From Acidobacteriota bacterium (GTDB lineage: Bacteria; Acidobacteriota; UBA6911), in assembly GCA_050011535.1 (NCBI GenBank), contig JBEKIX010000002.1:32365-96364 (forward strand): a DNA stretch of 64,000 bases, in the 5' to 3' direction. Position numbers and translations under genes: made by a program. Below are positions 10,757 through 59,968 of this stretch, in pieces. The notes under the pieces were generated by a model. It saw nothing but the letters and a program-made list of their open reading frames with translations. It was not told the origin of the DNA and made no database searches. The first letter of the stretch is position 1. Every line of letters begins with the position of its first letter.

Positions 10757-11131
10757 TTGGAGACGGCCAGGCAATCGCGATCCTGATTTCAGGATCGAGG
10801 AAAGTCCGAACTCCACAGGGCAGTGCGCCTCGTAACGCGAGGGAGGGGCGACCCTACGGAAAGTGCCACAGAAAACATACCGCCTTCGTTTTTGAGGGTA
10901 AGGGTGAAAAGGTGCGGTAAGAGCGCACCGCGTCATTGGTAACAATGATGGCAGGGTAAACCCCGCACGGAGCAAGGTCAAATAGAAAAGCGATCCCGCA
11001 AGGGATGAAGGATGGCCCGTCCGGTGCTTTTGGGTGGACCGCTTGATCTCTGGAGCGATCCAGAGACCAGATGAATGATTGCCGTCCCGGCAAAACCGGG
11101 AAACAAAATTCGGCTTATGGCCGTCTCCAGT
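10757..11131 (+). ncRNA. rnpB: RNase P RNA, bacterial type A
   Basis: Conserved blocks GAGGAAAGUCCGaaCUCCAcAGGGCAG, GGUAAGGGUGAAAaGGUGCGGUAAGAGCGCACC, GGUAAAC.CC.C.CGGAGCAAGG.CAAAUAG and ACCAGAUGAAUGA...ACAaaAUUCGGCUUAU are all present. The P1 helix pairs GGAGACGGCC (10759-10768) with GGCCGUCUCC (11118-11127). Confidence 0.88.
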
Positions 11132-11204
11132 CCTCCAGGACTCATCTTCTCTCCAGCATTTGGGAGAGCTGGTCGTGCAGAGACCATAAAGCGTTTGATT
11201 AAAC

Positions 11205-21011: not shown

Positions 21012-21944
21012 ATGAAGACCACTCCGGAAGACAGTTTTAAGATTGTTGATAATGGCAGAGCAGAGATGCGTCGTCCCCGTCCCGAATGGTTAAAGGTGCG
21101 GCTGCCTTCAGGGGAACGGTACACAAATGTAAAGAAATTAGTGCACGAGCAGCGTCTGAACACAGTCTGCGAAGATGCCCAATGTCCGAATATCGGTGAA
21201 TGCTGGGGAGCAGGCACAGCGACTTTCATGATCCTCGGAGATGTCTGCACGCGCTCCTGCAAGTTCTGTGCGGTCAAGACGGGATTGCCGCCTGATTACG
21301 ACTTGGATGAGCCGCGTCGCGTCGCGGAAGCCATGCGCCGGCTCAACCTCAGGTACGCTGTCATCACCTCGGTCGACCGTGATGACCTGGAAGACGGCGG
21401 CGCCTATATTTTCGCCGAGACGATCCGGCGCACGCGGGAAGCTTGTCCCGGCATCAGGATCGAAGTGCTGATTCCGGATTTTCGCGGATCCGGCGACGCG
21501 CTCCGCAAGGTAGTCGAGGCGCAGCCAGATGTCCTCGCTCACAACGTTGAAACCGTTCCCAGGCTCTATCGGACCGCGCGAGCAGGATCTCGCTATCGCC
21601 GTTCCCTTGACCTGTTGTTAAAAGCAAAATCGTTTGGGTTGCAGATCCGCACCAAGTCCAGCGTTATGCTCGGCCTGGGCGAGAACCGGGGTGAAGTTGT
21701 TGAAGTCATGACGGATCTGCGTGTCGCGAGCGTCGACATCCTGACTTTGGGACAGTATTTACGGCCGACCAAGGAACATCTGGCCGTTGACCGCTTCTAT
21801 ACTCCGGACGAGTTTTCAGAGCTGCGCAAGGTTGGGCTGTCGCTTGGGTTCTCTTTTGTGCAATCCGGCCCGCTGGTGAGATCGTCCTATCACGCAGAAA
21901 AGCAGGAAGTGGTCCTCAACGAGTCATCGTCTGCCACGATCTGA
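21012..21944 (+). CDS. lipA: lipoyl synthase
   Basis: Contains CEDAQCPNIGECW (auxiliary cluster) and the radical-SAM CTRSCKFCAV motif. Confidence 0.9.
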   Translation: MKTTPEDSFKIVDNGRAEMRRPRPEWLKVRLPSGERYTNVKKLVHEQRLNTVCEDAQCPNIGECWGAGTATFMILGDVCTRSCKFCAVKTGLPPDYDLDEPRRVAEAMRRLNLRYAVITSVDRDDLEDGGAYIFAETIRRTREACPGIRIEVLIPDFRGSGDALRKVVEAQPDVLAHNVETVPRLYRTARAGSRYRRSLDLLLKAKSFGLQIRTKSSVMLGLGENRGEVVEVMTDLRVASVDILTLGQYLRPTKEHLAVDRFYTPDEFSELRKVGLSLGFSFVQSGPLVRSSYHAEKQEVVLNESSSATI

Positions 21945-22055
21945 AACGCAGGTTGGGTGTGCGCTGCTGCAGGGCATAAAACGTTCGAGTTAATCGTGAG
22001 GAGGTTCTGCATTCTGTGCTATGATGCAGTCTACACATAGGACTCACGCATTCCT

Positions 22056-23360
22056 ATGACCCTCATTCCGCGCACGATCATTCTCTTGACGTTGTTTTGC
22101 GGCGGCGCCGCGGTGCCCTCAAGTGCGCAGATTGCCAGAATCGACTTGAACGGCATTATTGACCCGATCACTTCGGAATACGTGGTGAGAGGCATAGCCC
22201 GTGCGAACGCCGAGCACGCCCAGTTTGTCCTGTTGCGCCTCCAAACCCCCGGCGGTCTAGGCGCCTCCATGGAGGAAATGATCGCGGCGATATTGAACAG
22301 CGGTATCCCGGTTGTCGCCTATGTGTCCCCGAGCGGTTCATCCGCCGCCTCAGCGGGGTTTTTCATCTTGATGGCCGCGGATGTGGCGTCCATGGCTCCC
22401 GGAACCAACACCGGCGCGGCTCATCCTTTGCTGGAGATTGCGGGGTTTCCGATCGAGGGAGGCGAAGCGGGAAAGACCCTCACCGAAAAGATTACGAGCA
22501 ACGCGACGGCCTATTTAAGGAGTATCACGAGCAAGCGGCATCGTAATGTCGCGGAGGCCGAAAAGGCGGTCGTGGAAAGCAAATCGTTTACAGACAACGA
22601 AGCGCTCGACAACCATCTTATCGATTTCGTGGCACGCGATGAGGACGAATTGCTGCGGGAACTTCAGGGCTACAAGGTCGAGATGTTCTCCGGAAAATCG
22701 GTCACACTCTCTCCGCAGGGACAGGCAGTCGTAAGCTACCAAATGACGCCGCGCGAAAAGTTTCTGAACACAATATCCGAGCCAAACCTGGCTCTGATTT
22801 TAGGAGTGCTTGGCCTTATTCTTCTCTACGTCGAATTCACTCATCCGGGAATGGTCGCTCCCGGAGTGATCGGAGGCATCAGCTTTCTTCTCTCTATCCT
22901 TGGTTTTTCGTTTCTCCCAGTCAACTATGTCGGCGTCTTGTTGATCATGTTGGCTGTCGGGTTGTTCATCGCCGAGGTCAAAGTGCAGGGGTTCGGTGTT
23001 CTCGGCCTCGGGGGAGTGGTCGCCATGGTGATCGGCATGCTCATTCTCGTCGACAGTCCTGATCCAGCTGTCAGGATCGGACTTGCAACCGCACTGTCCG
23101 CCGCGCTTCCCTTCGCGGTGATCTTCATGATCCTGCTGTTTGCGTTGATCAAATCGTATCGCCAGAAGCCGTCTACTGGAAGCGCTGGGATGATCGGCCT
23201 GGTCGGCGTCGCAGACAGCGATGTGTTTGCCGAAGGCCGGGTGAGAGTACGGGGAGAGTACTGGCAAGCTCATGCCGCCGCACCTATTAGAGCTGGTACG
23301 CAGGTGTGCGTGGTAGGCATCGACAACTTGAATTTGTACGTTGAAGAGGCGAAGAAATAG
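22056..23360 (+). CDS. nfeD: NfeD-family membrane-bound ClpP-class serine protease (partner of the stomatin gene)
   Basis: Signal peptide, ClpP-like domain (GSSAASAGFFILMAADV), central polytopic TM region and a C-terminal NfeD OB-fold (VRVRGEYWQAHA...VCVVGIDNLNLYVEE). Confidence 0.8.
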   Translation: MTLIPRTIILLTLFCGGAAVPSSAQIARIDLNGIIDPITSEYVVRGIARANAEHAQFVLLRLQTPGGLGASMEEMIAAILNSGIPVVAYVSPSGSSAASAGFFILMAADVASMAPGTNTGAAHPLLEIAGFPIEGGEAGKTLTEKITSNATAYLRSITSKRHRNVAEAEKAVVESKSFTDNEALDNHLIDFVARDEDELLRELQGYKVEMFSGKSVTLSPQGQAVVSYQMTPREKFLNTISEPNLALILGVLGLILLYVEFTHPGMVAPGVIGGISFLLSILGFSFLPVNYVGVLLIMLAVGLFIAEVKVQGFGVLGLGGVVAMVIGMLILVDSPDPAVRIGLATALSAALPFAVIFMILLFALIKSYRQKPSTGSAGMIGLVGVADSDVFAEGRVRVRGEYWQAHAAAPIRAGTQVCVVGIDNLNLYVEEAKK

Positions 23361-23411
23361 CAGGGAGTTTGTAGTCGTGTTTTTCCGCTTCCTAACATGG
23401 GCGAGGGAATC

Positions 23412-24167
23412 ATGGATACTCAAGAGGCTTGGCTGTTTGGCATTGCGATCGTTATCCTCTATCTGCTGAGCACGATTAACATCCTCAAGGAATATGAGCG
23501 CGCCGTTGTTTTCCGCCTCGGCCGCCTCGCGAAAGACGCGTTAGGCCCCGGCGTGATCTTTATTTTCTGGCCCATTTACAAGATCGTCCGCGTCAGCCTG
23601 CGAACGGTCACGCTCGAGGTGCCACCGCAGGATGTGATCACGCGTGACAACGTATCCGTCAAGGTGAATGCGATTGTTTACTTTCGAGTGATGAACGCGC
23701 CACGCGCCATCGTCGAGGTGGAAAACTATTTGTACGCCACCTCTCAGCTGGCACAAACTACGCTACGATCAGTGCTCGGCGAAGTGGATTTGGATGACCT
23801 TTTGAGCAACCGTGAGAAGCTGAACGTCAAGCTCCAGGAGATTCTGGATCGGCACACCGATGCGTGGGGCATCAAAGTGAGTCTGGTTGAAGTAAAGCAG
23901 GTGGATCTGCCGCAGGAGATGCAGCGGGCCATCGCCCGGCAGGCGGAAGCGGAACGTGACAAGCGCGCCAAAGTCATTCATGCGGATGGCGAGTTTCAGG
24001 CCGCAGCCAAGATTCGCGAAGCTGCCGAAGTGATTGCCGGAGAACCTGTCGCGCTCCAACTGCGATATTTGCAGACACTCGCGGACATCGGGAATGAAAA
24101 GAACACGACCATTGTTTTCCCATTGCCGATTGATATTATTCAGACTTGGATCAAAACCAAATCATAG
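23412..24167 (+). CDS. SPFH/band-7 stomatin-like (slipin) protein
   Basis: The ATG at 23412 has GAGGGA upstream. The N-terminal TM is followed by an SPFH domain ([13 protein letters not shown]...[15 protein letters not shown]...). It forms the classic nfeD-stomatin operon. Confidence 0.85.
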
Positions 24168-24178
24168 GTTTACAGGAC

Positions 24179-24835
24179 ATGGCACAACTCAGCGCCGAAT
24201 CCGGAAATGAATTCATTCTAGATAATCGCAAGCTCATCATCGGTTTCATGCTGCTCATTGTCATTTGCGGGGCGTTCTTCGTAGTCGGCTTCATGGAGGG
24301 GAAGCGCCAGGCCGTGCAAGCACGATCCGAGCGGCCATCATCCGGCCCGGCAGGGACGCCTTCTGAGGCAGCAGCCCGTGCGGTCGCGACGCCGCCTGTG
24401 ACGCCTGCCAAGAATGGGCCTGCCGAAGATCGTTCCGTACGGGAACAGCTTGATTGGTACAAGACTGTCCAGGGTGGGGATACCGCAACAAGGGCGGTCG
24501 CGGAACCATCAAAAAGCGCAGAGGCGGAACCTACCCAAACCGAGAAGGTGACGCGCCCAGCCGCTGTACCCCAGAAGGCGGCTGCTGTGCCGAAAGCGTC
24601 ATCCGGAGCGGCTGCGTACACCGTCCAGGTCGGAGCATTCCGTCAACGGCATGAGGCGGAGAGCAAGGCCGACGCGCTGAAGACTAGAGGATACACCTTT
24701 GTGATCGAGTCTCCTGCGACCCCGGATGGGCTCTTTCTTGTCAAGGTCGGCAATTTCAATTCGCGCGCGGACGCCGTCGCCATGGAACGAAGGCTTAGAA
24801 AGGACGGCTTCAGCTGCTTCATCAAGACCAATTGA
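24179..24835 (+). CDS. SPOR-domain membrane protein (septal peptidoglycan binding)
   Basis: TM anchor, Ala/Pro-rich linker and a C-terminal SPOR motif YTVQVGAFRQRHEAESKADALKTRGY...LFLVKVGNFNSRADAVAMERRLRKDGFSCF. The start is uncertain (24146 TTG or 24179 ATG). Confidence 0.6.
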   Translation: MAQLSAESGNEFILDNRKLIIGFMLLIVICGAFFVVGFMEGKRQAVQARSERPSSGPAGTPSEAAARAVATPPVTPAKNGPAEDRSVREQLDWYKTVQGGDTATRAVAEPSKSAEAEPTQTEKVTRPAAVPQKAAAVPKASSGAAAYTVQVGAFRQRHEAESKADALKTRGYTFVIESPATPDGLFLVKVGNFNSRADAVAMERRLRKDGFSCFIKTN

Positions 24836-24888
24836 ACGGCCGTACGCATGCAAAGGTGGCAGGACAAGGTCTATTCCGAACAATCCGG

Positions 24889-26421
24889 ATGCCGCAAAAG
24901 GAACCGGCTCTTCTGCTTTACCCCTTACTAACAGGGGTTCTGACTTGGGCTTGTTTTCCAAAACTCAACCAGGGTTACCTGGCTTGGGTTGCGCTCGCCC
25001 CTCTCATCTTCTTTCTTCTCAAAACGCGCAGAATTCGCGCAGCCTTTTTCGCTGGATGGCTCGCGGGGACCGCTGAGTTTCTCTTATTGCTCTACTGGGT
25101 GCCGCCGGTGCTGAGCCACTATGGAGAGCTGCCTGTGCCAGTGGCCTGGGCCTTTCTGCTGTTGATAGCGGCGACCCTTGGGTGCTTTTCCGCCACGGCA
25201 TGCGCGCTGACGCGGTACGGGATGAATCGCTGGGGCGACTGGATTTTGTCTTTATTCCCCGCGGCCTGGGTTGCTCTCGAATACGCGCGCAGCCTGTTTC
25301 CATTCGCAGGATTTCCGTGGCTTCTGCTCGGTTATTCGCAGACAGACGTTCCGACGCTCGTTCAGACAGCGGATCTGTTCGGCGTTTACGGCGTATCCTT
25401 TCTCATCGCATGGGTAAACACAGCGCTTCTATGGGCGTGGGTGCAGCGCAGAAAGGGTTCGCAGGTCATCTTGGCGTTATCGAGTTGCGCTGTTTTGTTA
25501 TCGGCCTGCGCGGCCTATGGCGCGGCTGCGCTGACCCGCTGGGACCGCGTCCAGCCTCAGTATCAGGCAGCGCTTTTGCAGCAGAATCTCTCCGCTGACG
25601 AATCGGACGCGGCGCTGGAGTGGAAGTACAAGGAAGGTTACGTCAAGATGGCCGAGCGTCTTGGTGGCCGTCCTATAGACTTGCTGCTTCTCCCCGAATC
25701 GCCCTCGCCTCTGATATTTCAGTATGACAAGGACTATCAAACCTGCCTGCGCCAGCTGGCACGACGCTTTCCCTTTGGAATTGTCTTTAATAATATCCGT
25801 TTTGAGGAAGTGAGCGGCATATCTGCCTATTTTAACAGTGCGTTCTTTCTGGATGGGGCCGGAGCCGAAGTTGCGCGCTATGACAAGATTCATCTGGTCC
25901 CTTTCGGGGAGTACATCCCGTTCAAGCAACTGTTTTTTTTCACCGAGACCATTTCCAAGGATGTCGGCGATTTCATGCCGGGTAAGAATTACGTCATAGC
26001 CCCGATGGGAAGCCACGAGGTGAATGCACTGATATGCTTTGAGGCGGTCTTTGGCGATCTCTCACGGCAGTTCATCCGGCGGGGAAGCCAACTGATTATC
26101 AATTTGACCAACGACGGCTGGTACGGAGATACATCGGCCCCCTATCAACATCTGGAGATGGCCAGATGGAGAGCCGTCGAAGCCCGCAGGTGGTTTCTCA
26201 GATCCGCGAATACAGGCATTTCTGCGATTGTCACTCCTGCCGGCAGGCTTGAAGCGTCGACGGGTCTGCTAAGGGAAGCGGTAGTCACCGGTGGATTCGA
26301 TTTTCTGGCCGGCGAAACGTTCTATGTGCGGCACGGCGACGATTTGCCTATTGTGTGTGCTATCCTTTGGTCTTGTATTTTAATTGCTGGTTTCGTGATG
26401 ACCGCACGAGGCCGGCGCTAG
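24889..26421 (+). CDS. lnt: apolipoprotein N-acyltransferase
   Basis: Polytopic N-terminus plus a C-terminal CN-hydrolase domain (LLLPESPSP..., FEAVFGDLSRQ, LTNDGWYGDTSAPYQH). ATG at 24889 is preferred over the TTG at 24832, which overlaps the upstream stop. Confidence 0.8.
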   Translation: MPQKEPALLLYPLLTGVLTWACFPKLNQGYLAWVALAPLIFFLLKTRRIRAAFFAGWLAGTAEFLLLLYWVPPVLSHYGELPVPVAWAFLLLIAATLGCFSATACALTRYGMNRWGDWILSLFPAAWVALEYARSLFPFAGFPWLLLGYSQTDVPTLVQTADLFGVYGVSFLIAWVNTALLWAWVQRRKGSQVILALSSCAVLLSACAAYGAAALTRWDRVQPQYQAALLQQNLSADESDAALEWKYKEGYVKMAERLGGRPIDLLLLPESPSPLIFQYDKDYQTCLRQLARRFPFGIVFNNIRFEEVSGISAYFNSAFFLDGAGAEVARYDKIHLVPFGEYIPFKQLFFFTETISKDVGDFMPGKNYVIAPMGSHEVNALICFEAVFGDLSRQFIRRGSQLIINLTNDGWYGDTSAPYQHLEMARWRAVEARRWFLRSANTGISAIVTPAGRLEASTGLLREAVVTGGFDFLAGETFYVRHGDDLPIVCAILWSCILIAGFVMTARGRR

Positions 26422-26436
26422 GCTCTTGGAGGTGAC

Positions 26437-27583
26437 ATGATCGAGGAGTTGCGCGAGAAAGTGAACGCCATCATGCAAAAAGTCGAACAGGTTCGAGGTT
26501 ATCTTTGATGTAGAACATAAGCGGGCAGAAATCGCCCAGATAGAAAAAAGAGTCGCTCAGCCCGACTTTTGGTCTCGCCACGAAGAGGTTCAATCGATCC
26601 TGCAGACGAAGCGCCGCCTCGAGCGCGACGTTGAGCTGGATTCTCAGCTGTCGCGCGACATCTCCGACCTGGGCGCCCTTTTGGACCTTGCCGTGGAAGG
26701 AGAGGATGTTCTTTCCGAGTTGGATGCTGAGACGGATCGTCTCGCGCAAGAGATAAAGCAAACCGAAATCCGGACACTGCTTTCCGGTGAGCACGACGAC
26801 AGTAACGCGATTGTCAGTATTCATCCCGGAGCCGGCGGCACCGAATCACAGGACTGGGCTGAGATGCTGCTGCGCATGTACCTGCGCTGGTCGGAGCGCT
26901 CAGGGTACGGGACCGAAATTCTCGACTATCAGCAAGGAGAGGAGGCAGGTATCAAGTCGGTCACCTTTCTGGTAAAAGGTGATTATGCCTACGGCAACCT
27001 GGGCGCCGAGATCGGAGTGCACCGTCTGGTGCGCATTTCGCCTTTTGATGCCGCGGCGCGCCGGCACACGAGCTTTGCTTCAGTATTCGTATACCCGGAA
27101 ATCGACGATAAGATTGAAGTTCAAATCGACGAGAAGGACCTTAGAATCGACACGTACCGTTCTTCCGGGGCTGGGGGGCAACATGTCAACGTGACCGACT
27201 CCGCCGTTCGCATCACGCACATTCCCACCGGTATCGTCGTTTCGTGCCAGAACGAGAGATCGCAGATTCGGAATCGGGACATGGCGCGCAAGGTTTTGCG
27301 CGCGCGGCTGTACGATCTGGAGTTGGAAAAGAAGCGCAAACAGCTGCAGGCCGTGGAAGATACCAAGTTGGACATCGCCTGGGGCAGCCAAATCCGTTCG
27401 TACGTCCTGCATCCATATCGCATGGTGAAAGACCATCGCACCAAGTACGAGACTTCAAACACCGATCGCGTGTTGGACGGCGAGCTTGATGATTTCATAT
27501 ATCAGTATCTGGTCTTTCGCGAGAAATCCAGGAAGCGAGACAACGTGGTCGGGCCGGAGAGCAATTCCAGGGCTGCGAAATGA
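26437..27583 (+). CDS. prfB: peptide chain release factor 2, requiring a programmed +1 ribosomal frameshift: join(26437..26505,26507..27583)
   Basis: Frame-0 ORF MIEELREKVNAIMQKVEQVRGYL ends at CTT TGA. The +1 frame continues DVEHKRAEIAQIEKRVAQPDFWSRHEEVQSILQTKRRLERDVELDSQLSRDISDLGALLDLAVEGEDV... into the ORF-track entry 26681..27583. The SPF tripeptide (RISPF) and GGQ (SGAGGQHVN) motifs are present. An SD-like GAGGU lies 3 nt upstream of UAU CUU UGA. Confidence 0.9.
26491..26509 (+). other. RF2 autoregulatory recoding site (internal SD GAGGU, slippery CUU U, in-frame UGA)
   Basis: Sequence gttcGAGGTtatCTTTGAtg. CUU is at 26503-26505, and T26506 is skipped in the +1 shift. Confidence 0.85.
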
Positions 27584-28374
27584 TGAATGGAGAAATCGTG
27601 GAAACCGAAAAAAGTACAGGCGTTGCTAAGCAAGCTCTGGCGCAGACGAAGCGACCTGGGAGGCCGGCGTATCACAGCAGGACGTATACGGGTCTCTTGA
27701 TCTTCGTCATCGTTGTCGGCCTGCCGTTGATCGCCATACCTTCCCTGAGACAACGTTTGAAGACGCGCTTCGACATGATTAGAGCGGCGGTTCGCGGCGA
27801 GCAGCTTCCGCCGCCGCCTGCCTTTGCTCGCGTCGGTCAAAATCAGGTGCCGTTTCCCCGCGAATACGAACAGCCGCAGCCTCGCCCCGCCTTTTTGGCA
27901 GGTCTGATAGCGCCTCGACAGCACGCATCGATTGTGGTCACAGACCAAGTCGGGGTGCCCACTATCGTCCCCGCGCCGCTCAAGCGAACTCTCGGGTCGC
28001 CGTCGCCTATTCCTTCAAAGGGAAAGCCTGGAACGCCGCCCGCGGCACTGGCCTCCGTGCCCGCACAGGCGGAGACGGAAACTGCAGGGTCCGCAAGTTC
28101 GGAGCCGGTCTACAAGAAAGGAGAGCGCGAACAGGAGGCTTATGACATCGTGCTAAACGCGAATCAAACCCTGGCAGGAATGGTCAAAGGGAGCGATGCG
28201 ACGCTCAAATTCCAGGACTGGGCTGCGGCTAACATGGGCGAGGGTTCCTATTACGTGATGGTGACCTTCGCACAAACTGCAGACAATGTGGCCCGCAAAT
28301 ACATTTGGAATGTCAAGGTGTCTTCGAAAGAGGTGACACCACTGAGCTCCTATGCTATGTCCATTTCCAAATAG
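27580..28374 (+). CDS. hypothetical single-pass membrane protein (cytoplasmic N-tail, TM, Pro-rich linker, roughly 100-aa C-terminal domain)
   Basis: The start overlaps the prfB stop (ATGA). The TM segment is LLIFVIVVGLPLIAIPSL. No recognisable motif was found. Confidence 0.4.
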   Translation: MMNGEIVETEKSTGVAKQALAQTKRPGRPAYHSRTYTGLLIFVIVVGLPLIAIPSLRQRLKTRFDMIRAAVRGEQLPPPPAFARVGQNQVPFPREYEQPQPRPAFLAGLIAPRQHASIVVTDQVGVPTIVPAPLKRTLGSPSPIPSKGKPGTPPAALASVPAQAETETAGSASSEPVYKKGEREQEAYDIVLNANQTLAGMVKGSDATLKFQDWAAANMGEGSYYVMVTFAQTADNVARKYIWNVKVSSKEVTPLSSYAMSISK

Positions 28375-28536: not shown

Positions 28537-31059
28537 ATGCAGATCACGATTTTCAGATTCTTGCGCGCATTGCTGATAGGTCTGATTGCTCTGATCTCGC
28601 TCGCCGTGCTGGTCAATTACTCGCAGACCGCGCGCCGCAGGCGCGCTGCCGTTAAACCGATCACGCAGATCCTGAGCCCCGAGATGTTGCGGTCGGCAAA
28701 CAATATTGAGTACTTCGCAAACTCGCAAGGCGGCACCAAGTTTCGCCTGCAAGCTCTGAAACTGCTGGAAAATCGCCAAGGGAAAGAGCTCCTGGAAGGT
28801 GTCACCGCAAATGATTTCGACAGCGAAGGAAACGAGGTCAATCACATTACGAGCGAATGGCTCGAATACGACACAATCGGTAAACAGCTGTTCTTCTATG
28901 GGAAAGTGCGTCTCCATCCAGGGAAGGGCGTCGAGCTGCGCATGCAGACGCTTCACTATAATTTGAAGGACCAGATCGGCTATTCGGATGACCGTTTTCA
29001 GCTCGTTTCGACGCAGGCCGACGGAACGGCGCGGGGAGTCCGCTACGATAATGCCCGCAAGCGCATGGAGCTTCTACACGAAGTTGCATTTGTCGTGCAC
29101 CGGAGTGCGCCCGCCGCGGATGGTTCCGCTCAGAATCAGGATTATCGCCTTTTTTCTCAGCAAGGGACGTACTCCGAGACGGAGCATACGGTGCGTCTAA
29201 ACGGCGCGGCCAGGATCGTATCCGCGACCGGCACACTGGCAGGCGACCGGATTACAGCGACGTTCACGCCGGAAGGGAAACAGCTGACGGGTCTCGTCTG
29301 CGACGGTAACTCTGTTTACGAATCCGTGTACGGGACCGAATCGAGGAAGCTGCAGGGAGAGCGCATCGAGCTGGGCATCAACCAGGCATCACGTACGCTC
29401 GAGAAAATTCTGGTGCACGAACACGCCAGCTTCAGCTCAAATTCTGCCGACGGAGAGCAGAAACTGGATGCGTCGGAAATCCAGCTTGAATTGGATCCGG
29501 TAAAAGGGACGCCACGCACGATCCGGAGCCAGGCAGGCATACGCTTCACCGTCGCGCGTGGAGGGCAGAGCACGGTGCTGACCGGTGACTGGATGGAGGC
29601 AAATTTCGCAGCAGAAGGAGGTGCCCTGGAAGACATGCATCTTCGCGACCATGCGAGCATGATCATGAACAATGCCTCAGGCCGGCCCGATGAGCTTCAA
29701 GCGCAGGACATTCACCTGACGTTCAGCAATTCCGAAGGGCGCAGCGTTCCCCGGGAACTGCAGGCACAAGGTTCGATTCAATGGAAATCGCGAAGTGGCG
29801 GACCTCCAGGCGGCGCGGCAGGAAGCAGCGACAGATCCCTGAACGCGTCCTCTTTGCACTTGACCTACTCCCAAAACGGAGATTTCCTGGAGTCAGGAAC
29901 CGCGGAAAACAACGTGGTCTTGTCCGCGCTTCCCTCGGCAACGGCCACGACAGGTCTGGACCAGCGCCTTCAGTGCGATCGGCTTTCATTCGACTTTTAT
30001 CCCGGCAACAACCGGCTTCGAAGGCTGATTGGTGAGGGTGACGTACGGGTTTTCTATCGCAAACCCGCTGGATCCGGCGGACATTCTTCTTTCGAAGAGT
30101 TTCACACCTCGAGTTCGAGCATCCAGGCTCAATTCCGTGAGAGTGACGGCAGCGCAGAATCGGTCAATCAGTCAGGCAAATTTGTTTACCAGGACGCGAC
30201 GCGAACTGCCAAGGCGGGGACGTGCGACTACGATGCCACCACGGATATGGTTGATTTGCGCAATCATCCGAGCGTTGCGGACTCAGATTCCGCCACCAGT
30301 GGCGATGTGATTAGGTACGCGCGCAACCAAGGCTTGCTGACCGTTCAAGATCACGTTCGTTCGATACTAATGTCCACCAGGGATCACACCTCCGGATTTC
30401 TTACCACCTCCTCCAGTTCGTCTTCGCCCTGCGTCGTCAGTGCCAATGAAATGCAGTATTGGACCAACGGAAACGCAGTCACTTATACAGGACACGTGCA
30501 GTTGCTTTCGGCGACAGGCCAGTTCCAGGCGGATTCGCTTACCCTCTTGGACTCCGGACAGCGCGTTGAAGGCAAGGGAAATGTACGCCATTTGCTATCG
30601 GGCACAGCTATGACCAATTCGGATAAGCGCCCCCGCGAAAACGGAACGTCTGCCGCCAAAACTGACGATAAGGCAAAGGTGGTGAAGCAGACCCTCATCC
30701 GCAGCGCCCGGTTTCAGTACAACCGGGCTGAAAACCGAATGCACTACGAAGATAACGTGACGCTGGATTCGCCCGACGCCAAAGCAAAAGCGGACAGCCT
30801 GGACGCCTTTTTGGATGCCGACGGGACAAAGCTTGAGCGGGCAACTGCACAGGGCAATGTGCTTATTACACAACCGGGCAGGGAGGTAAAAGGCGCAACT
30901 GCCGAGTATCTCCTGTCCGAAGGCAAGGTCGTTGTGACGGGAAACCCTGCCACCGGAAGTCTTGCGGAACTCCGTGATTACGTTAAGGGCACGTCGAGGG
31001 CCCTTCGATTGACATTTTTTACAGCCGATGATAGGATCGTGCTCGAAAATCGCAAGTAG
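28537..31059 (+). CDS. LPS-transport periplasmic bridge protein, apparent LptC-LptA fusion with expanded OstA-like beta-jellyroll repeats (840 aa)
   Basis: N-terminal TM anchor plus an LptC-like domain (residues ~1-190). Repeated OstA/LptA-like segments follow. A canonical LptA C-terminus ([37 protein letters not shown]) sits immediately upstream of lptB. There is no stop codon in 2,520 nt. Confidence 0.55.
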
Positions 31060-31091
31060 GCATGTATGATACTGATTGTAAAAGACTTGTG

Positions 31092-31823
31092 ATGAATGAC
31101 TCCAGATTGCAGGCCTTTGGTTTGGAGAAGTCCTACCGGGGAAGGATGGTGGTCAGTGAAGTCGTCCTCGAACTCCGACAGGGTGAGGTCGTGGGACTTT
31201 TGGGCCCCAATGGAGCCGGAAAGACCACGACGTTTTATATCGTAGTCGGGCTGATCCCACCGGATGCAGGCAGGGTTCTGCTGAATGGGGCGGACGTAAC
31301 CAATCTGCCGATGTATCAGAGGGCGCGTTCCGGAATAAGCTACCTTCCACAGGAACCATCGGTGTTCCGCAAGCTCACGGTGGAGGAGAACCTGAAGAGC
31401 ATCGCCGAAACGCTGCCGATCTCCGTGGCAGAACAGGGAGAGAGAGTGGCGGGCCTGCTCGAAGAATTTGGAATTGAGGCGTTGCGGCGCCAGGGAGCAT
31501 ATACCCTGTCCGGCGGTGAACGGCGTCGCTTAGAGATTGCCCGAGCACTTGTCCTTACTCCCAAGTTTGTCCTTCTCGATGAACCCTTCGCCGGCATTGA
31601 CCCTCTTGCCGTCCTTGATATCCAGAGAATCATCAGTCGGTTGAAGGAGCGCGGCATCGGGGTCCTGGTTACCGATCACAATGTGCGCGAAACTTTGAAT
31701 ATCACGGATCGCGCTTATATAATAAGCGAGGGCAAGATCTTGCGTGAAGGCACTCCTGAACAATTGACGAACGACGTGGAGGTTAGGAAGGTTTACCTCG
31801 GCGAAAATTTCAGGCTTAACTAA
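31092..31823 (+). CDS. lptB: LPS export ABC transporter ATP-binding protein
   Basis: [36 protein letters not shown] aligns with E. coli LptB. The ATG at 31092 is preferred over 31062. Confidence 0.85.
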
Positions 31824-31826
31824 GCG

Positions 31827-33278
31827 ATGAATAATCGGCGACAACAACTGCGTCAATCCCTTGATCTGCGGCTAAGTCAAAGGCTGGCGCTTACGCCGTC
31901 TCTGCTGCAGAAAATTGAACTGCTCCAGCTGAATAAGCTGGAATTGCAGGACTTGCTCACGCAGGCGCTTGTCGACAATCCAATCCTGGAGGAAGGCACC
32001 GAGGCAGATGTCCCGCGTGATGCAAATCCTGATGAAAAGATGCCGGAGGCGCCCAAGGAATCCGGTGAGAAGGACTCGTTCGAGGAAATCGATTTCGGAT
32101 ACTTTTTCGACGAATATCTGGACACCGGATACAAGAACCGGGAGGTCGAAGACCCTGAAAAACCTTCATTTGAAACGTTTTTGGTGCGCCCTCCTTCGCT
32201 TACCGACCACTTGATTTCTCAATTAGGCCTTGCGGATGTCGAAGGTCCTATCGCTGAAATTGCCCAGCAGATCATAGGAAACCTGGATGAAGACGGTTAC
32301 CTTCTCGTCAGCACGGAAGAGCTCTGTGACCTGACATCCGCGAGTTTAGAACAGGCCGAGGCGGCGCTTCTCCTGGTTCAGAGCTTTGATCCCATCGGCG
32401 TGGCGGCACGCGATTTGAGGGAGTGCCTGCTGCTCCAATTGCAGGCACGGGGGCTGAAAGACACTCTTCCTTGGCGCGCTGTCAGCGAGCATATGGCGTT
32501 GCTGGAAAACCACAAGTTCAAAGAACTGGCTGCCCGTACGGGTGCTTCTTTTGCGGAGGTGTTGCAGGCGGTCGACGCCATCCAACATCTGATCCCGAAA
32601 CCGGGCCAGAAGTACAATCCTCAGAGTGTCGCCTATGTTCAGCCTGAGGTGACGATCTCCAAAGTCGACGGAGAATTCGTCATCATTCAGAACGAAGATG
32701 GAATGCCGCAGCTGCGCATGAACACCGGCTATCGGGATCTGCTGAAGAGCAACGGTGTCAGTGGGGAAACGAAGGCATTTCTGAGAGAGAAATTCCGTTT
32801 GGCAGTGGAATTGTTGCGGAGCGTAAGCCAAAGAAAACGCACGATATATCGCGTATGCGAGGTCATCATCAATCGTCAGCGCGAGTTTCTTGATCGGGGC
32901 CCTTCTGCATTGCATCCCATGCTGATCAAGGACGTGGCAAACGAGCTGGGAGTGCACAGTTCGACGATCAGTAGGGTCGTGACCAACAAGTACGTCGACA
33001 CGCCCCAGGGGGTAATGGAACTACGAAAGTTTTTCACGATGGGGGTGGAGAGTCCTGATGGAGAGGAACTCTCGATTGTGCAGGTAAAACTGAAGATAAG
33101 AAAACTCATCGAGGATGAAAACAAAGCCAAACCTCACTCTGACAACCAGATCGGGCAACTATTGCGACGGAACAACATTTTCATCACCAGGAGGACAGTG
33201 GCAAAATACCGGGAGCAGATGCAGATTCCCGGCTCGCGCGAGCGGAAGATCGGCTATCTACTCCACGCGGAAAGCTAG
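31827..33278 (+). CDS. rpoN: RNA polymerase sigma-54 factor
   Basis: Gln/Leu-rich N-terminus, a core-binding region and the C-terminal RpoN box ...GVHSSTISRVVTNKYVDTPQG...RKFF. Confidence 0.9.
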   Translation: MNNRRQQLRQSLDLRLSQRLALTPSLLQKIELLQLNKLELQDLLTQALVDNPILEEGTEADVPRDANPDEKMPEAPKESGEKDSFEEIDFGYFFDEYLDTGYKNREVEDPEKPSFETFLVRPPSLTDHLISQLGLADVEGPIAEIAQQIIGNLDEDGYLLVSTEELCDLTSASLEQAEAALLLVQSFDPIGVAARDLRECLLLQLQARGLKDTLPWRAVSEHMALLENHKFKELAARTGASFAEVLQAVDAIQHLIPKPGQKYNPQSVAYVQPEVTISKVDGEFVIIQNEDGMPQLRMNTGYRDLLKSNGVSGETKAFLREKFRLAVELLRSVSQRKRTIYRVCEVIINRQREFLDRGPSALHPMLIKDVANELGVHSSTISRVVTNKYVDTPQGVMELRKFFTMGVESPDGEELSIVQVKLKIRKLIEDENKAKPHSDNQIGQLLRRNNIFITRRTVAKYREQMQIPGSRERKIGYLLHAES

Positions 33279-33365
33279 TTGTGGCGGCGTCAGGGTGGAC
33301 AACAGCTTTCTGGCGCGGCCCACCCCTCAGATCAGCTTGAAATCTCAATCGAGAAGGATGGCAAG

Positions 33366-33908
33366 ATGAACGTGGAAATTACCGGGCGGCATGTAGTGAT
33401 TACGCCTGCGATTCGTTCGTATGTTCTGAAACGTTTGAGCAAGTTTGATAGGCTTTTCGGAGATGGCGTCAGTTTTCACGTCATCATCGATGTGGAAAAG
33501 GAGCGGCACACAGCAGAAATCCTCCTCAAATCCAGGCTTCTTGATTTGACTGGCAAGGGTGAGACCGATGATATGTACACATCGGTGGTGCGCGCCATTG
33601 ACAAACTCGAGCGTCAGGCAATCAAGAATAAGACTCGGCTGATTGAGACAAAACGTCAGAAAGCCAAAGCAAAGTCGGTTCAGAAAAAATCCGGCATCAG
33701 CGTCTCGCGGCCGGCGTCGATCCTAAGTAGACCGGGGATCGTTCTTGAGGAGGAGGAAGTGCCCGGCAGGCCGATGAGCGTCGAGGATGCTCTGGCCGAG
33801 CTTGAACAGTCTGAGCACCAGTTTGTTGCCTTCAGGAACATGGAGTCAGGATCACTGAGCGTAATATATCGGCGGAGGGACGGATCGATTGGCCTGATTC
33901 AGGAGTAG
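33366..33908 (+). CDS. hpf: ribosome hibernation promoting factor, long form with C-terminal extension
   Basis: MNVEITGRHVVITPAIRSYVLKRLSKFDRLF... is followed by a C-terminal dimerisation-like domain (RPMSVEDALAELEQSEHQFVAFRNMESGSLSVIYRRRDGSIGLIQ). AAGGA RBS precedes the ATG. The ORF-track start 33279 is rejected. Confidence 0.85.
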   Translation: MNVEITGRHVVITPAIRSYVLKRLSKFDRLFGDGVSFHVIIDVEKERHTAEILLKSRLLDLTGKGETDDMYTSVVRAIDKLERQAIKNKTRLIETKRQKAKAKSVQKKSGISVSRPASILSRPGIVLEEEEVPGRPMSVEDALAELEQSEHQFVAFRNMESGSLSVIYRRRDGSIGLIQE

Positions 33909-33928
33909 CAGCCGCGAACCGAAATCGT

Positions 33929-34888
33929 ATGTATGCGCAGGAGGGAATTCAACCGGAAGGTGTAACCGTCGAAGAGTTTGCTCTTGCCCCTCAGGTTGGG
34001 CTCGACTTCGAAATCCTGTCCGGCATTGCGGGATATGCGAAAAGGATTCGTATCTCTCGCATCCAAAAGCTCGGCATGGCGCTTGCCGGTTTTACCGACT
34101 ATATCCATTCGGATCGTGTGCAATTGCTCGGCGGTAGTGAGATGAATTACCTGAACATTCTCGACGCTGCCGCCCGACGTGACTCTATTCACCGCCTTCA
34201 ACGCGTCGAGATTTCCTGCATAGTGATCACCAAGGGTCTGGATGCACCTCCTGAATTGACCGAAATGGCGCGGGCTAGAGACTTTGCATTGTTAAAGACG
34301 CCGGCGCTCAGTTCAACATCAATCGAAAAAATCACTGACTACCTGGAAATGCGCCTGGCATCACGCACCACTCTCCATGGAGTGTTCATGGAGGTTTTCG
34401 GGCTCGGCATCCTGATTCTTGGAGCATCAGGAATTGGTAAGAGCGAGTGCGCTCTCGAGCTGATTGTTAAGGGACACCGGCTGGTCGCCGACGACAGCGT
34501 CGAAATCATCCGGCGTGGAGCCGATCGGCTGGTGGGGGCCGGGGGGCCGGTTCTCAAGTACCATATGGAGCTGCGCGGTCTTGGCATCATAGACATCAAA
34601 GAGCTGTTCGGCATTTCCGCAACCGGGAACCCGCACGCCCTTGAATTGGTGGTCCGACTCGAACGTTGGAAACCGGATGGCGTGTATGACCGTCTCGGGA
34701 TCGATTGTTCTACGATTGAAATTCTGGGTGTGCCGGTGCCGCTTATAGAGATGCCGGTCGCGCCCGGGAGGAACGTATCCACGCTGGTGGAGGTCGCGGC
34801 TCGCGCCCAATTGCTCCGCAGGCGCGGTTTTCAACTATCCAGCGAACTCAAGGATGAGCGTGATCCGGTCGGCGACGGCGCGCCGTAG
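33929..34888 (+). CDS. hprK: HPr kinase/phosphorylase
   Basis: Walker A GASGIGKSECALELI and ...HRLVADDSVEI...LRGLGIIDIK are present. Confidence 0.85.
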   Translation: MYAQEGIQPEGVTVEEFALAPQVGLDFEILSGIAGYAKRIRISRIQKLGMALAGFTDYIHSDRVQLLGGSEMNYLNILDAAARRDSIHRLQRVEISCIVITKGLDAPPELTEMARARDFALLKTPALSSTSIEKITDYLEMRLASRTTLHGVFMEVFGLGILILGASGIGKSECALELIVKGHRLVADDSVEIIRRGADRLVGAGGPVLKYHMELRGLGIIDIKELFGISATGNPHALELVVRLERWKPDGVYDRLGIDCSTIEILGVPVPLIEMPVAPGRNVSTLVEVAARAQLLRRRGFQLSSELKDERDPVGDGAP

Positions 34889-34920
34889 CCCCGGTCGTAC
34901 TCGAGGGGTTTGGACGAGAC

Positions 34921-35814
34921 ATGAGCCTTCAGGAACTGGTGGTAGTTACGGGAATGAGCGGTTCCGGAAAAGGGACCGTTCTAAAATCATTCGAGGATCT
35001 AGGTTTCTTCTGCATTGACAATCTTCCGGTCACTCTGATCCATAAGTTCATTGAGGGGATTCATGTAAGCGGCGGCGTTGTGGAACGCGCGGCGCTCGTG
35101 ATCGATATCCGGGCAGGAGAAAGACTTCGCGATCTCGAGAAAATAATACTCAGTTTGCGGGAGTTCGAGTTCCGCGTTTTTGTTCTCTATCTCGAAGCCC
35201 GCGATGAGGTGCTCGTGCGGCGATTCAGCGAGACACGGCGGCCTCACCCGCTCACGACTGACAAGCCTGTTCGCGATGCCATCCGGCTCGAACGCAAACG
35301 CCTGCGTGCGGTACGGGAATGCGCTGATGTCATCATCGACACCTCGGAATACTCCATTCACGAAGTCAAGGCACTGGTCATGAGCCGCTTTCGGGAGCAT
35401 CCCCGGGTGGAGAAACTCATCATCTATCTGGTGAGTTTTGGATATAAGCACGGAGTGCCGTTGGAGAGCGACCTTCTCTTTGATGTGCGCTTCCTGCCGA
35501 ATCCGTTCTTCGTTTCGGGGTTGCGTATGCTGAGCGGCCGGCACCCGCAAGTGGCAAAGTACATGCGTTCCTTTCCCGAGACCAAGGAGTTCATCAAGCG
35601 TGTGTGCAGTTTCCTGGGTTTTCTGATTCCGCTGTATATAAAAGAAGGAAAGGCGTATCTCACTGTAGGTGTTGGATGTACGGGAGGACGGCACCGGTCT
35701 GTGTATATCGTGGAAGAGCTGGCCAAGCTGATCAAGTTCCGGAAGGTGACCATCAAGGTCAGGCATCGGGATGAAGCACAGGCACGGCTGGCGCAATCGC
35801 ATTCTCGATCCTGA
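34921..35814 (+). CDS. rapZ: RNase adapter protein RapZ (YhbJ, P-loop NTPase)
   Basis: VVVTGMSGSGKGTVLKSFEDLGFFCIDNLP and the C-terminal ...GCTGGRHRSVYIVEELA are present. Confidence 0.85.
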   Translation: MSLQELVVVTGMSGSGKGTVLKSFEDLGFFCIDNLPVTLIHKFIEGIHVSGGVVERAALVIDIRAGERLRDLEKIILSLREFEFRVFVLYLEARDEVLVRRFSETRRPHPLTTDKPVRDAIRLERKRLRAVRECADVIIDTSEYSIHEVKALVMSRFREHPRVEKLIIYLVSFGYKHGVPLESDLLFDVRFLPNPFFVSGLRMLSGRHPQVAKYMRSFPETKEFIKRVCSFLGFLIPLYIKEGKAYLTVGVGCTGGRHRSVYIVEELAKLIKFRKVTIKVRHRDEAQARLAQSHSRS

Positions 35815-35823
35815 GGGAACCTA

Positions 35824-36222
35824 ATGATCGGCGCACTATTGGTAAGCCACGGTCACCTCGCGCAGGAGTTATTGGCTGCTGCTGAGATGATCGTTGGAGA
35901 GATTTCGCATATTCAGGCGGTTTCGATCGGCTGGCACGATGACGTCAACGATGCGCGCAGTGAAATTGAGAAGCGCATCGCGGATGTGGACGGCGGCGCA
36001 GGAGTGCTCATTCTCACGGACATGTTCGGGGGTACGCCGTCCAATATCGCCTTTTCGTTTCACGAACCCGGAAAACTGGATGTTGTGACGGGCGCAAACC
36101 TGCCGATGATCATCAAAATCGCCAGCCAGAAGGAGGGGGAAACTTTAGAGTCACTGGCGCGCTCGGTTTGCGAGCAGGGGCGCTCAAGCATCGCCATGGC
36201 AAGCGATTTTTTGAAGACATGA
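35824..36222 (+). CDS. PTS EIIA component, mannose/fructose family (occupies the position ptsN holds in E. coli)
   Basis: MIGALLVSHGHLAQEL...VLILTDMFGGTPSN has the EIIA-Man fold signature with the phospho-His in VSHGHLA. Confidence 0.75.
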   Translation: MIGALLVSHGHLAQELLAAAEMIVGEISHIQAVSIGWHDDVNDARSEIEKRIADVDGGAGVLILTDMFGGTPSNIAFSFHEPGKLDVVTGANLPMIIKIASQKEGETLESLARSVCEQGRSSIAMASDFLKT

Positions 36223-36494
36223 TTCAGCTTTCAATCGTTGTGGAAAACAGGCTGGGTTTGCACGCTCGTGCCGCCGCGAAACTGGTCCAATTGGCGTCGC
36301 GTTACGGCAGCGACATCTACCTAGCCCGCGAAGGATATCAGCAGGCGATTAACGCCAAGAGCATCCTGGGGGTTTTGATGTTGGCCGCTTCCAAGGGTAC
36401 GCATCTCGTAGTCTCCATCAGTGGGCCCGATGAGGTCGATGCGGGTGAAGCCGTCGGCGGGCTGTTTGCCGCCAAATTTGGAGAGGAAAGTTGA
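36219..36494 (+). CDS. ptsH: phosphocarrier protein HPr/NPr
   Basis: MIQLSIVVENRLGLHARAAAKLVQLA has the His15 region. Ser46-type region KSILGVLML is present. ATGA overlap with the EIIA gene stop. Confidence 0.8.
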   Translation: MIQLSIVVENRLGLHARAAAKLVQLASRYGSDIYLAREGYQQAINAKSILGVLMLAASKGTHLVVSISGPDEVDAGEAVGGLFAAKFGEES

Positions 36495-36511
36495 ACGGCA
36501 CCACGGCTGAA

Positions 36512-38332
36512 ATGGTATTCCACGGCAACGGCATCTCACACGGTGTCGCGCTGGGGAGCGCGCTGAAACTCGACAGCTACAACAGGGTCATCCTGAAGAC
36601 GCTGCTCGACGACAATCTTGTGGAAGACGAAGTCAGCCGCTTTCAACTGGCGATCCGCACCTCAAAAGAGCAGCTGGAGGGTCTGAAACAACAATTAGCG
36701 GAAAAAGTCGGCGCCGAGCACGGCTTCATCCTGGATGTGCACATCTTGATGCTGGAAGACGACAGCCTCATGGATCATATCATTGCCATTATCCGGGGCC
36801 AGCATGCCAATGCCGAATGGGCCGTCCGCCAGGCCACAGACCGAATCATGGAGGCGTATAAATCGCTGGACGATGAGTACTTCCGAGAGCGTGTGAGTGA
36901 CATAGAAAACGTGGTCGAGCGCATCCTATTGAATTTGAGGGGTGATCATCCGGTCCCATGGGCGCCCTTGCCGCAAGACTTGATTGTGGTTGCCCACGAT
37001 TTCAATCCGTCTGCGTTTGCAACCATGGACCTGCAAAAGGTGCGCGCACTGGCGCTTGAATCCGGAGGGCGCACGTCGCATACCGCGATCATCGCACGTA
37101 GCCTGCGACTGCCGGCGGTCATGGAGATCAAGGGGTTTCTTCCCTTGGTGGCCACCGGCGATACGCTATTGGTGAACGGGGACGAAGGCGAACTCGTCTT
37201 GAATCCATCCGAAGAGCGCCTCAAAAGGTTGGGTCCGCGGCTCGAACAATCCAAGCTGGGAGTGCCGGAACTTGCCGCATCGCAGGACAGCGCTGCGGTA
37301 ACCGAAGATGGTGTTCACATTTCGCTACAGGCAAACACCGAAATGCCTCATGAGGTAATGGCTGCGAAGAGATGTGGGGCTGAAGGGATAGGTCTTTTCA
37401 GGTCAGAGTTTCTCTTCTTTGCGCATCCGCAGGGTTTTCCGAGCATGGGAGAGCAGCTGGAGACGTATCAGATGCTGGCCCGCGAGATGTTTCCCTATCC
37501 TGTGGCGATACGGACGCTGGATGCAGGAGGCGACAAGACCTGGGCTCGCACAGCTCCCTCGCTGGAACCCAATCCGAGCATGGGCTTGCGCGGGATTCGC
37601 CTCAGCCTGCGCACTAAGCAACATTTTTCAGCACAAATCGAGGCAATCCTGCGCGCGAGCGCTTCTGGAAAGCTCGAAATCGTACTTCCCATGGTTTCCA
37701 CCGTCGAGGAACTCTGGGAGGCCAAGAAACTTATCGAGGAAGTACGATTAAGCATCCGTCTGGAAGGAGGCCAGGTACCTGCTCCTGTGCCAGTCGGAGC
37801 GATGATTGAAGTTCCGGCTGCGGTTCTGACGCTGGACCGTCTGGCCCGCGAGGTCGATTTCCTCTGCGTGGGGACCAATGACCTGATCCAGTATCTCCTT
37901 GCGGTGGATCGTGATAACCCCCATGTAGCCCACCTGTTTCAACCGCTGCATCCCTCGATCCTGCAATGTCTGCGGAGGATCGCGGAAACCGCAACGAATT
38001 TGAAGAAGCCGGTGCGGATATGCGGCGAAATGTCCTGCAACCCGTTTTTTGCGGTTCTCTTTCTTGGAATGGGCTATGACCAGCTGAGCATGAATCCCAG
38101 GTTCATACCCGAAACCAGGCAAGTCGTTCGCAGCGTCACCGTGCGCGCAGCGCGCAAGATCGTCGATGAAGCCGTGACATTTACCACGGCTGCCGAAATC
38201 GCGGAGTTCCTTATTGCGGAGGTTTCTCGCCTGGTGAAGCTGGACCTCAGTTCTTTCGAAAAGGAGCTAAGATCAAGTGGTGCAATCTCTGGCGACACAC
38301 CGACCCCGGGTTCATCGGCTCTCGCAGAATGA
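36512..38332 (+). CDS. ptsI: phosphoenolpyruvate-protein phosphotransferase (Enzyme I)
   Basis: MVFHGNGISHGVALGSA matches the EI N-terminus. The phospho-His region GGRTSHTAIIARSL and the PEP-utilising C-terminal domain (...CGEMS) are present. Confidence 0.85.
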   Translation: MVFHGNGISHGVALGSALKLDSYNRVILKTLLDDNLVEDEVSRFQLAIRTSKEQLEGLKQQLAEKVGAEHGFILDVHILMLEDDSLMDHIIAIIRGQHANAEWAVRQATDRIMEAYKSLDDEYFRERVSDIENVVERILLNLRGDHPVPWAPLPQDLIVVAHDFNPSAFATMDLQKVRALALESGGRTSHTAIIARSLRLPAVMEIKGFLPLVATGDTLLVNGDEGELVLNPSEERLKRLGPRLEQSKLGVPELAASQDSAAVTEDGVHISLQANTEMPHEVMAAKRCGAEGIGLFRSEFLFFAHPQGFPSMGEQLETYQMLAREMFPYPVAIRTLDAGGDKTWARTAPSLEPNPSMGLRGIRLSLRTKQHFSAQIEAILRASASGKLEIVLPMVSTVEELWEAKKLIEEVRLSIRLEGGQVPAPVPVGAMIEVPAAVLTLDRLAREVDFLCVGTNDLIQYLLAVDRDNPHVAHLFQPLHPSILQCLRRIAETATNLKKPVRICGEMSCNPFFAVLFLGMGYDQLSMNPRFIPETRQVVRSVTVRAARKIVDEAVTFTTAAEIAEFLIAEVSRLVKLDLSSFEKELRSSGAISGDTPTPGSSALAE

Positions 38333-59893: not shown

Positions 59894-59968
<75 letters not shown>

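Follow-up and report, generated by a model that had tools for sequence, protein, structure and literature searches.

The locus between positions 26437 and 27583 of the DNA analyzed here, referred to as the window (the whole stretch of 64 kb), raises the question of whether it holds two separate open reading frames (ORFs), a broken gene, or one intact gene that is read in two frames. The ORF list contains a 23-residue ORF at 26437..26508 on the plus strand, which starts with ATG, encodes MIEELREKVNAIMQKVEQVRGYL and ends with the stop codon TGA, and a 300-residue ORF at 26681..27583 on the same strand, which starts with TTG and lies in the +1 frame relative to the 23-codon ORF. A sequence-only reading had proposed that both belong to prfB, the gene for the release factor RF2, and are connected by a conserved programmed +1 frameshift; its description of the two ORFs and of the nucleotide string at their junction agrees with the sequence and the ORF list to the base. 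Knowledge of the prfB frameshift as a phenomenon dates back to the 1980s. Here, we find an ordinary prfB with a textbook +1 frameshift, i.e., already known biology that had been read correctly, and we are highly confident that the region is prfB with an RF2-autoregulated programmed +1 frameshift.

The structure of the gene can be read from the arrangement of its frames. The +1 frame of prfB is open from 26465 to 27583 with an upstream stop codon TGA at 26462, and the only start codons in this frame before 26700 are TTG at 26681 and GTG at 26693; a frame scan detected no ATG, GTG, or TTG in the +1 frame from 26465 to 26680. Because start codons are lacking from the +1 frame between the stop codon at 26462 and the TTG at 26681, the full-length product requires a shift of frame, and the stretch 26507..26680, being free of start codons, is open and yet not initiable by itself. 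The +1 part that is translated comprises 358 codons (26507..27580, plus the stop codon at 27581..27583). The figure of 300 codons given for this part in the sequence-only reading is that of the ORF list and reflects the position of the first in-frame TTG, whereas the translated part is longer. The correct prfB feature is join(26437..26505, 26507..27583), in which T26506 is skipped and which encodes 381 residues. The gene comprises the following parts:

26428..26436, plus strand: putative Shine-Dalgarno sequence GGAGGTGAC before the prfB ATG, with a GGAGG core and a 4-nt spacer, assigned by reading the sequence.

26437..26505, plus strand: zero-frame part of prfB, codons 1 to 23 (MIEELREKVNAIMQKVEQVRGYL), from the ORF list and its translation.

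26507..27583, plus strand: +1-frame part of prfB, codons 24 to 381 and the stop codon TGA at 27581..27583.

Several lines of evidence bear on the identity of the joined 381-residue protein. It scores 522.1 bits with the NCBIfam model TIGR00020 for prfB, the cut-off of which is 370, and covers positions 2 to 352 of the 353 positions of this model in one single stretch, in agreement with the full-length match that had been expected of the joined translation. The scores with the RF1 models are 267.5 and 262.7 bits and lie under the respective cut-offs of 400 and 423. In Pfam, the protein matches PCRF at residues 29 to 216 and RF-1 at residues 224 to 334. The SPF motif is located at residue 201 (27038..27046) and the GGQ motif at residue 246 (27173..27181). 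Solved structures of E. coli and Thermus RF2 match the joined protein with E values from 1e-117 to 1e-96, the top matches being E. coli RF2 chains at E = 1e-117, and one of the alignments to an E. coli RF2 structure extends from residue 6 to residue 355 and is gapless over the junction. In a tblastn search of the window with the joined protein, two segments in frames 1 and 2 were found that abut at the shift site; the same search detected no second release-factor-like gene (prfA, prfH, or arfB) in the 64 kb.

A direct comparison with E. coli was made using the annotated two-piece coding sequence of prfB of K-12 MG1655 (b2891, NC_000913.3), which was translated likewise. The joined protein and E. 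coli K-12 RF2 share 52% identity over 355 residues. The zero-frame part aligns with residues 4 to 25 of the E. coli protein, and across the junction RGYL|D is identical in the two proteins and aligned with no gap. The window RF2 differs in having a C terminus that is 16 residues longer than that of E. coli RF2. The premature stop codon is codon 24 in the window and codon 26 in E. coli, and a start codon in the +1 frame is unavailable in E. coli as in the window. The score with the prfB model, the PCRF and RF-1 domains, and the identity to E. coli RF2 bear out the earlier claim that the +1 frame encodes the N-domain of RF2 and joins an ORF with the SPF and GGQ motifs; N-terminal similarity to RF2, the lack of which had been named as a finding that would speak against a frameshift, is present. 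The predicted joined product is a full-length RF2, and its assignment to this family is unambiguous.

The shift site lies within gttcGAGGTtatCTTTGAtg, which corresponds to 26491..26510 of the window and reads GTT CGA GGT TAT CTT TGA TGT A. Its elements are as follows:

26495..26499, plus strand: internal Shine-Dalgarno (SD)-like element GAGGU (GAGGT), which ends 3 nt upstream of CUU and 6 nt upstream of the stop codon.

26500..26502, plus strand: UAU, the codon predicted to occupy the E site when the shift takes place; the same codon is found in E. coli.

26503..26506, plus strand: slippery CUU-U (CTTT), on which the P-site tRNA-Leu would re-pair from CUU to UUU, as in the E. coli mechanism.

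26506..26508, plus strand: UGA, the RF2-specific in-frame stop codon and putative sensor of the RF2 concentration; codon 24 of the zero frame.

26509, plus strand: U (T), the base after UGA, which is C in most bacteria.

Compared side by side, the E. coli site CTT AGG GGG TAT CTT TGA C and the window site GTT CGA GGT TAT CTT TGA T have in common UAU CUU UGA and the 3-nt gap from the purine-rich element to CUU, and in this respect the site matches the recoding site of E. coli prfB, as had been stated. The SD-like element differs, being CGAGGU in the window and AGGGGG in E. coli. GAGGU matches the SD consensus over 5 nt; compared to GGAGGU, the match is displaced by one position, and pairing would lie one position further 3'. 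CGA GGU encodes Arg-Gly as in E. coli and, thus, represents a synonymous re-coding. The first codon in the +1 frame is GAU in the window and GAC in E. coli, and both encode Asp. That the base after UGA is U and not the usual C is a point that the sequence-only reading passed over in likening the two sites.

The window site can also be placed among the prfB genes of Bacteria at large. The prfB frameshift motif was found in 64% of 12,753 bacterial genomes; the recoding stop codon is TGA in >99% of the motif-bearing species, and the C after it is highly, almost universally conserved (Prince, Lin and Feaga 2025, PMC12421855). An earlier treatment of the motif, Baranov et al. 2002, is referred to here as it is cited in PMC12421855. 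The window site agrees with this Bacteria-wide motif in TGA, CTTT, and the SD spacing and differs from it in having U for C after the stop codon. Thus, all defining features of a prfB recoding site that can be judged from sequence are present, and the one exception is the absent C after the stop codon, which is highly conserved without being a strictly defining element. Per-genome motif sequences for Acidobacteriota are not contained in the supplement of PMC12421855.

Searches for additional elements around the site gave negative results. The predicted fold of 26470..26590 was not beyond that of shuffled controls (z = −0.58) and, therefore, gave no indication of a stimulatory RNA structure; such a lack of local structure is expected because the shift mechanism uses none. 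An Rfam search of the whole window at gathering thresholds returned only RNase P RNA and one tRNA, with no family matched at the shift site. The hexamer CTTTGA occurs in 27 copies in the window compared to 36.7 expected from shuffled sequence, and, therefore, is uninformative when taken alone. The significance of the site stems from where it lies, namely at codon 24 in a gene for RF2, from the alignment to RF2, which runs over the junction with no gap, and from its conservation in relatives.

To describe this conservation, we used 80 loci from a scan of species-representative genomes; nearly all are labeled as Acidobacteriota or as lineages of this phylum, and one is labeled as Candidatus Binatia. 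The nearest relatives among the 80 loci by RF2 protein identity are L062 (78%) and L001 (74%), and the window is accordingly assigned to an uncultured representative of the Acidobacteriota. At two of the loci, contig ends cut the sequence upstream of the site, leaving 78 that could be evaluated. In all 78 of these, a zero-frame CTT TGA is present at the homologous codon, 222 to 224 codons before GGQ. Base tables cover 75 relatives, with L001, L038, and L044 added separately to the CTT count: CTT is found in 75 of 75 tabulated relatives and likewise in these three loci, and TGA in 75 of 75. As E-site codon, 57 of the 75 relatives have TAT and 14 have TTT. GGAG or GAGG is present at the SD-like position in 74 of 75, while the residues encoded by the two SD-like codons vary among relatives (RS, RE, GR, QE, RR, and RG). 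That the nucleotides are kept while the residues vary argues for selection on the nucleotides rather than on the protein. Leader peptides homologous to the zero-frame part (...DLRxYL) were also found in relatives. CTT TGA is, thus, conserved throughout the evaluable sample.

The base after the recoding TGA is more variable. Among the 75 relatives, 58 have C at this position, 11 have T, 3 have G, and 3 have A, so that 17 of 75, or 23% of the sampled Acidobacteriota, deviate from C. Accordingly, the base after the recoding stop codon is more variable in Acidobacteriota than in the Bacteria-wide survey, in which C is almost universal. T after TGA is also present in L001 and L062, which as the closest relatives form the window's own small clade. 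These two loci share with the window the U after UGA and a GAGG/GGGG register, their SD-like and E-site codons being CGA GGC TAT and CGG GGT TAT. Most of the phylum, by contrast, has C after UGA and the SD-like codons CGG AGC or CGG GAG. In Blastocatellia and Pyrinomonadaceae, T after TGA is combined with GGGAGG and with TTT (UUU) as E-site codon. G and A after TGA occur in Vicinamibacterales-like loci, in which the first +1 codon encodes Glu.

Three other explanations for the interrupted frame have to be weighed against a programmed shift. The T at 26506 might be an extra base introduced by sequencing or assembly that splits an uninterrupted prfB, and the insertion of one base into a run of T, here in CTTTG, is generally known as a common type of error. 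This explanation can be judged from three public assemblies of the same species (Logan SRR12951270, JGI 3300039307, and ENA ERZ4200889), which were found via an identical rpoN product. Over 17.4 kb, substitutions relative to the window number 19 in the Logan, 7 in the JGI, and 10 in the ENA assembly, and because of these single-nucleotide differences elsewhere the assemblies are independent. In a comparison of 164 bases around the shift site, however, all three are identical to the window, although the assemblies come from different samples and pipelines. An identical site in three assemblies that bear substitutions elsewhere excludes a sequencing error at 26506 for all practical purposes. Moreover, all evaluable relatives are interrupted at the same codon, and the annotated prfB of E. 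coli is built alike. We, therefore, consider the probability of an error to be negligible; the extra T, which had been singled out as the base on which the frameshift proposal could founder, is real and is present in the three assemblies and in all evaluable relatives. A real interruption could also mark prfB as a pseudogene that was inactivated by a frameshift, with RF2 being supplied from elsewhere in the genome. Because only 64 kb are visible, a second prfB could lie outside the window. A decayed gene would, however, not be expected to have a +1 frame open over 358 codons and a score well over the prfB cut-off, nor to have its interruption coincide precisely with the known recoding site, all elements of the motif being in place. 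The conservation of this structure across the phylum is also not a product of random decay, and we find a pseudogene no more credible than an error.

The third explanation dispenses with a frameshift altogether. In this scenario, a truncated RF2 would be made from an internal start codon (TTG at 26681, GTG at 26693, or the starts chosen by public gene callers, which give products of 296 and 239 residues), and the 23-codon ORF would encode a separate leader peptide. Public gene calls model the gene in this way, and start codons are available at 26681 and 26693. However, such a product would lose at least ∼81 domain 1 residues that can be aligned to E. coli RF2. Also, the start-less stretch 26507..26680 encodes conserved RF2 sequence that is continuous with the zero-frame peptide, and the RF2 profile is matched from position 2 only after the two parts are joined. 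Independent translation of the two ORFs is, in our estimate, very improbable, if marginally less so than an error or a pseudogene. Altogether, these comparisons favor a single prfB that is decoded by a programmed +1 frameshift, and none of the observations speaks against it.

How the shift would proceed can be outlined by analogy. The mechanism is established in E. coli, and the work on E. coli and B. subtilis is summarized in PMC12421855; from the work on E. coli we infer that the shift itself takes place in the organism studied here and that it depends on RF2. In such a model, ribosomes would initiate at the ATG at 26437 and translate 23 codons, after which tRNA-Leu on CUU (26503..26505) would occupy the P site and UGA (26506..26508) the A site. 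If RF2 is plentiful, UGA would be read and the 23-residue peptide released. If RF2 is scarce, the ribosome would pause and GAGGU, located 3 nt behind the P-site codon, would pair with the anti-SD sequence at the 3' end of 16S rRNA; the window itself contains no 16S gene. The E-site tRNA would then leave and tRNA-Leu would slip from CUU to UUU, upon which GAU (26507..26509) would be read as Asp and translation would continue in the +1 frame to the TGA at 27581..27583, yielding the 381-residue factor. The functional outcome would be negative feedback on RF2 synthesis.

The departures from the E. coli site, i.e., U after UGA and GAGGU as SD-like element, are small variations within a known kind. 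The UGA-U context could lower the efficiency of the shift in this organism. In E. coli, UGAU reportedly signals termination better than UGAC does, as Poole et al. are said to have found in 1995, and Major et al. are said to have described an effect of the base after the stop codon in 1996. A one-line summary in PMC12421855 bears on UGAU terminating better than UGAC. We tentatively raise the idea, which we consider rather unlikely, that UGA-U in this lineage and in Blastocatellia, joined in the window's clade by the shorter, register-shifted GAGGU, gives the RF2 loop a different set point or, alternatively, reflects a preference of RF2 for the base after the stop codon that is altered in these Acidobacteriota compared to E. 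coli. If the set point differs, there would be more termination per passage and a higher demand signal would be needed before RF2 is made. If this were true, the 23% of sites with a base other than C would form a natural series on the tuning of the RF2 loop by stop codon context. The residual novelty of the locus lies in the UGA-U context, which is common to a minority of Acidobacteriota.

The practical value of the analysis lies in the correction of the annotation. As had been anticipated for gene callers unaware of frameshifts, the gene is miscalled in the three public assemblies, in which it is represented by products of 296 or 239 residues; these truncated calls carry the PCRF and RF-1 matches. 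The exact product of the 300-residue ORF had no match in the public gene index because the callers picked other starts. In the JGI and ENA assemblies (L082 and L083), a 117-residue ORF was called on the opposite strand at 26471..26824, in the 5' part of prfB that the truncated calls leave vacant; this call is almost certainly spurious and due to the frameshifted gene having been missed. Such miscalls introduce fragments and false "hypothetical proteins" into protein databases and can make a genome appear to be without an intact essential gene. The model type of TIGR00020 is "exception", i.e., NCBI handles the family as a special case.

The genes adjacent to prfB in the window are the following:

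24832..26421, plus strand: lnt (apolipoprotein N-acyltransferase), with Pfam matches to LNT_N and CN_hydrolase; it ends 15 nt before the prfB ATG.

27580..28374, plus strand: a 264-residue ORF, the ATG of which overlaps the prfB stop codon (ATGA).

The neighbors of prfB, lnt and the 264-residue ORF, differ from those in E. coli, which are recJ and lysS. Of the 80 relatives, 67 have lnt immediately before prfB in the same orientation, and the two genes are probably co-transcribed in the window. The conserved lnt-prfB pair of Acidobacteriota, thus, stands in contrast to the prfB-lysS pair of E. coli. A gene for a SPOR-domain protein (24146..24835) precedes lnt, and matches to its product were found upstream of prfB in 11 relatives. 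The 264-residue ORF (27580..28374) had no Pfam match, and among the 80 loci homologues of it are located downstream of prfB only in L001 and L062.

Further downstream, an 840-residue ORF (28537..31059, plus strand) matches LptC at residues 16 to 183 and LptA/LptD_N at residues 721 to 804, with a long middle part that has no assignment. It is located directly before lptB (31062..31823) and resembles a fusion of LptC with LptA or a giant bridge protein of the periplasm for LPS transport. From 31062 to 38332, the plus strand contains lptB, rpoN (31827..33278), hpf (33279..33908), hprK, rapZ, and genes for EIIA-Man, HPr, and ptsI, and this cluster is a nitrogen-PTS-like neighborhood of sigma-54. 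The start of hpf differs between public calls, which give 209 or 180 residues. In the window as a whole, GC content is 56.6% and TGA is the commonest stop codon of long ORFs (28 of 52). RNase P RNA of bacterial class A is encoded at 10759..11132 on the plus strand (full-length Rfam match, 333 bits), and the sole tRNA gene in the window is that for tRNA-Gly (anticodon CCC) at 59894..59968, also on the plus strand. In the plus-strand region 21012..24167, upstream of the SPOR-domain gene, a gene for a lipoyl synthase (radical SAM and LIAS_N) precedes one that resembles an NfeD membrane protease and one of the SPFH/Band 7 type; the pairing of NfeD with stomatin is usual.
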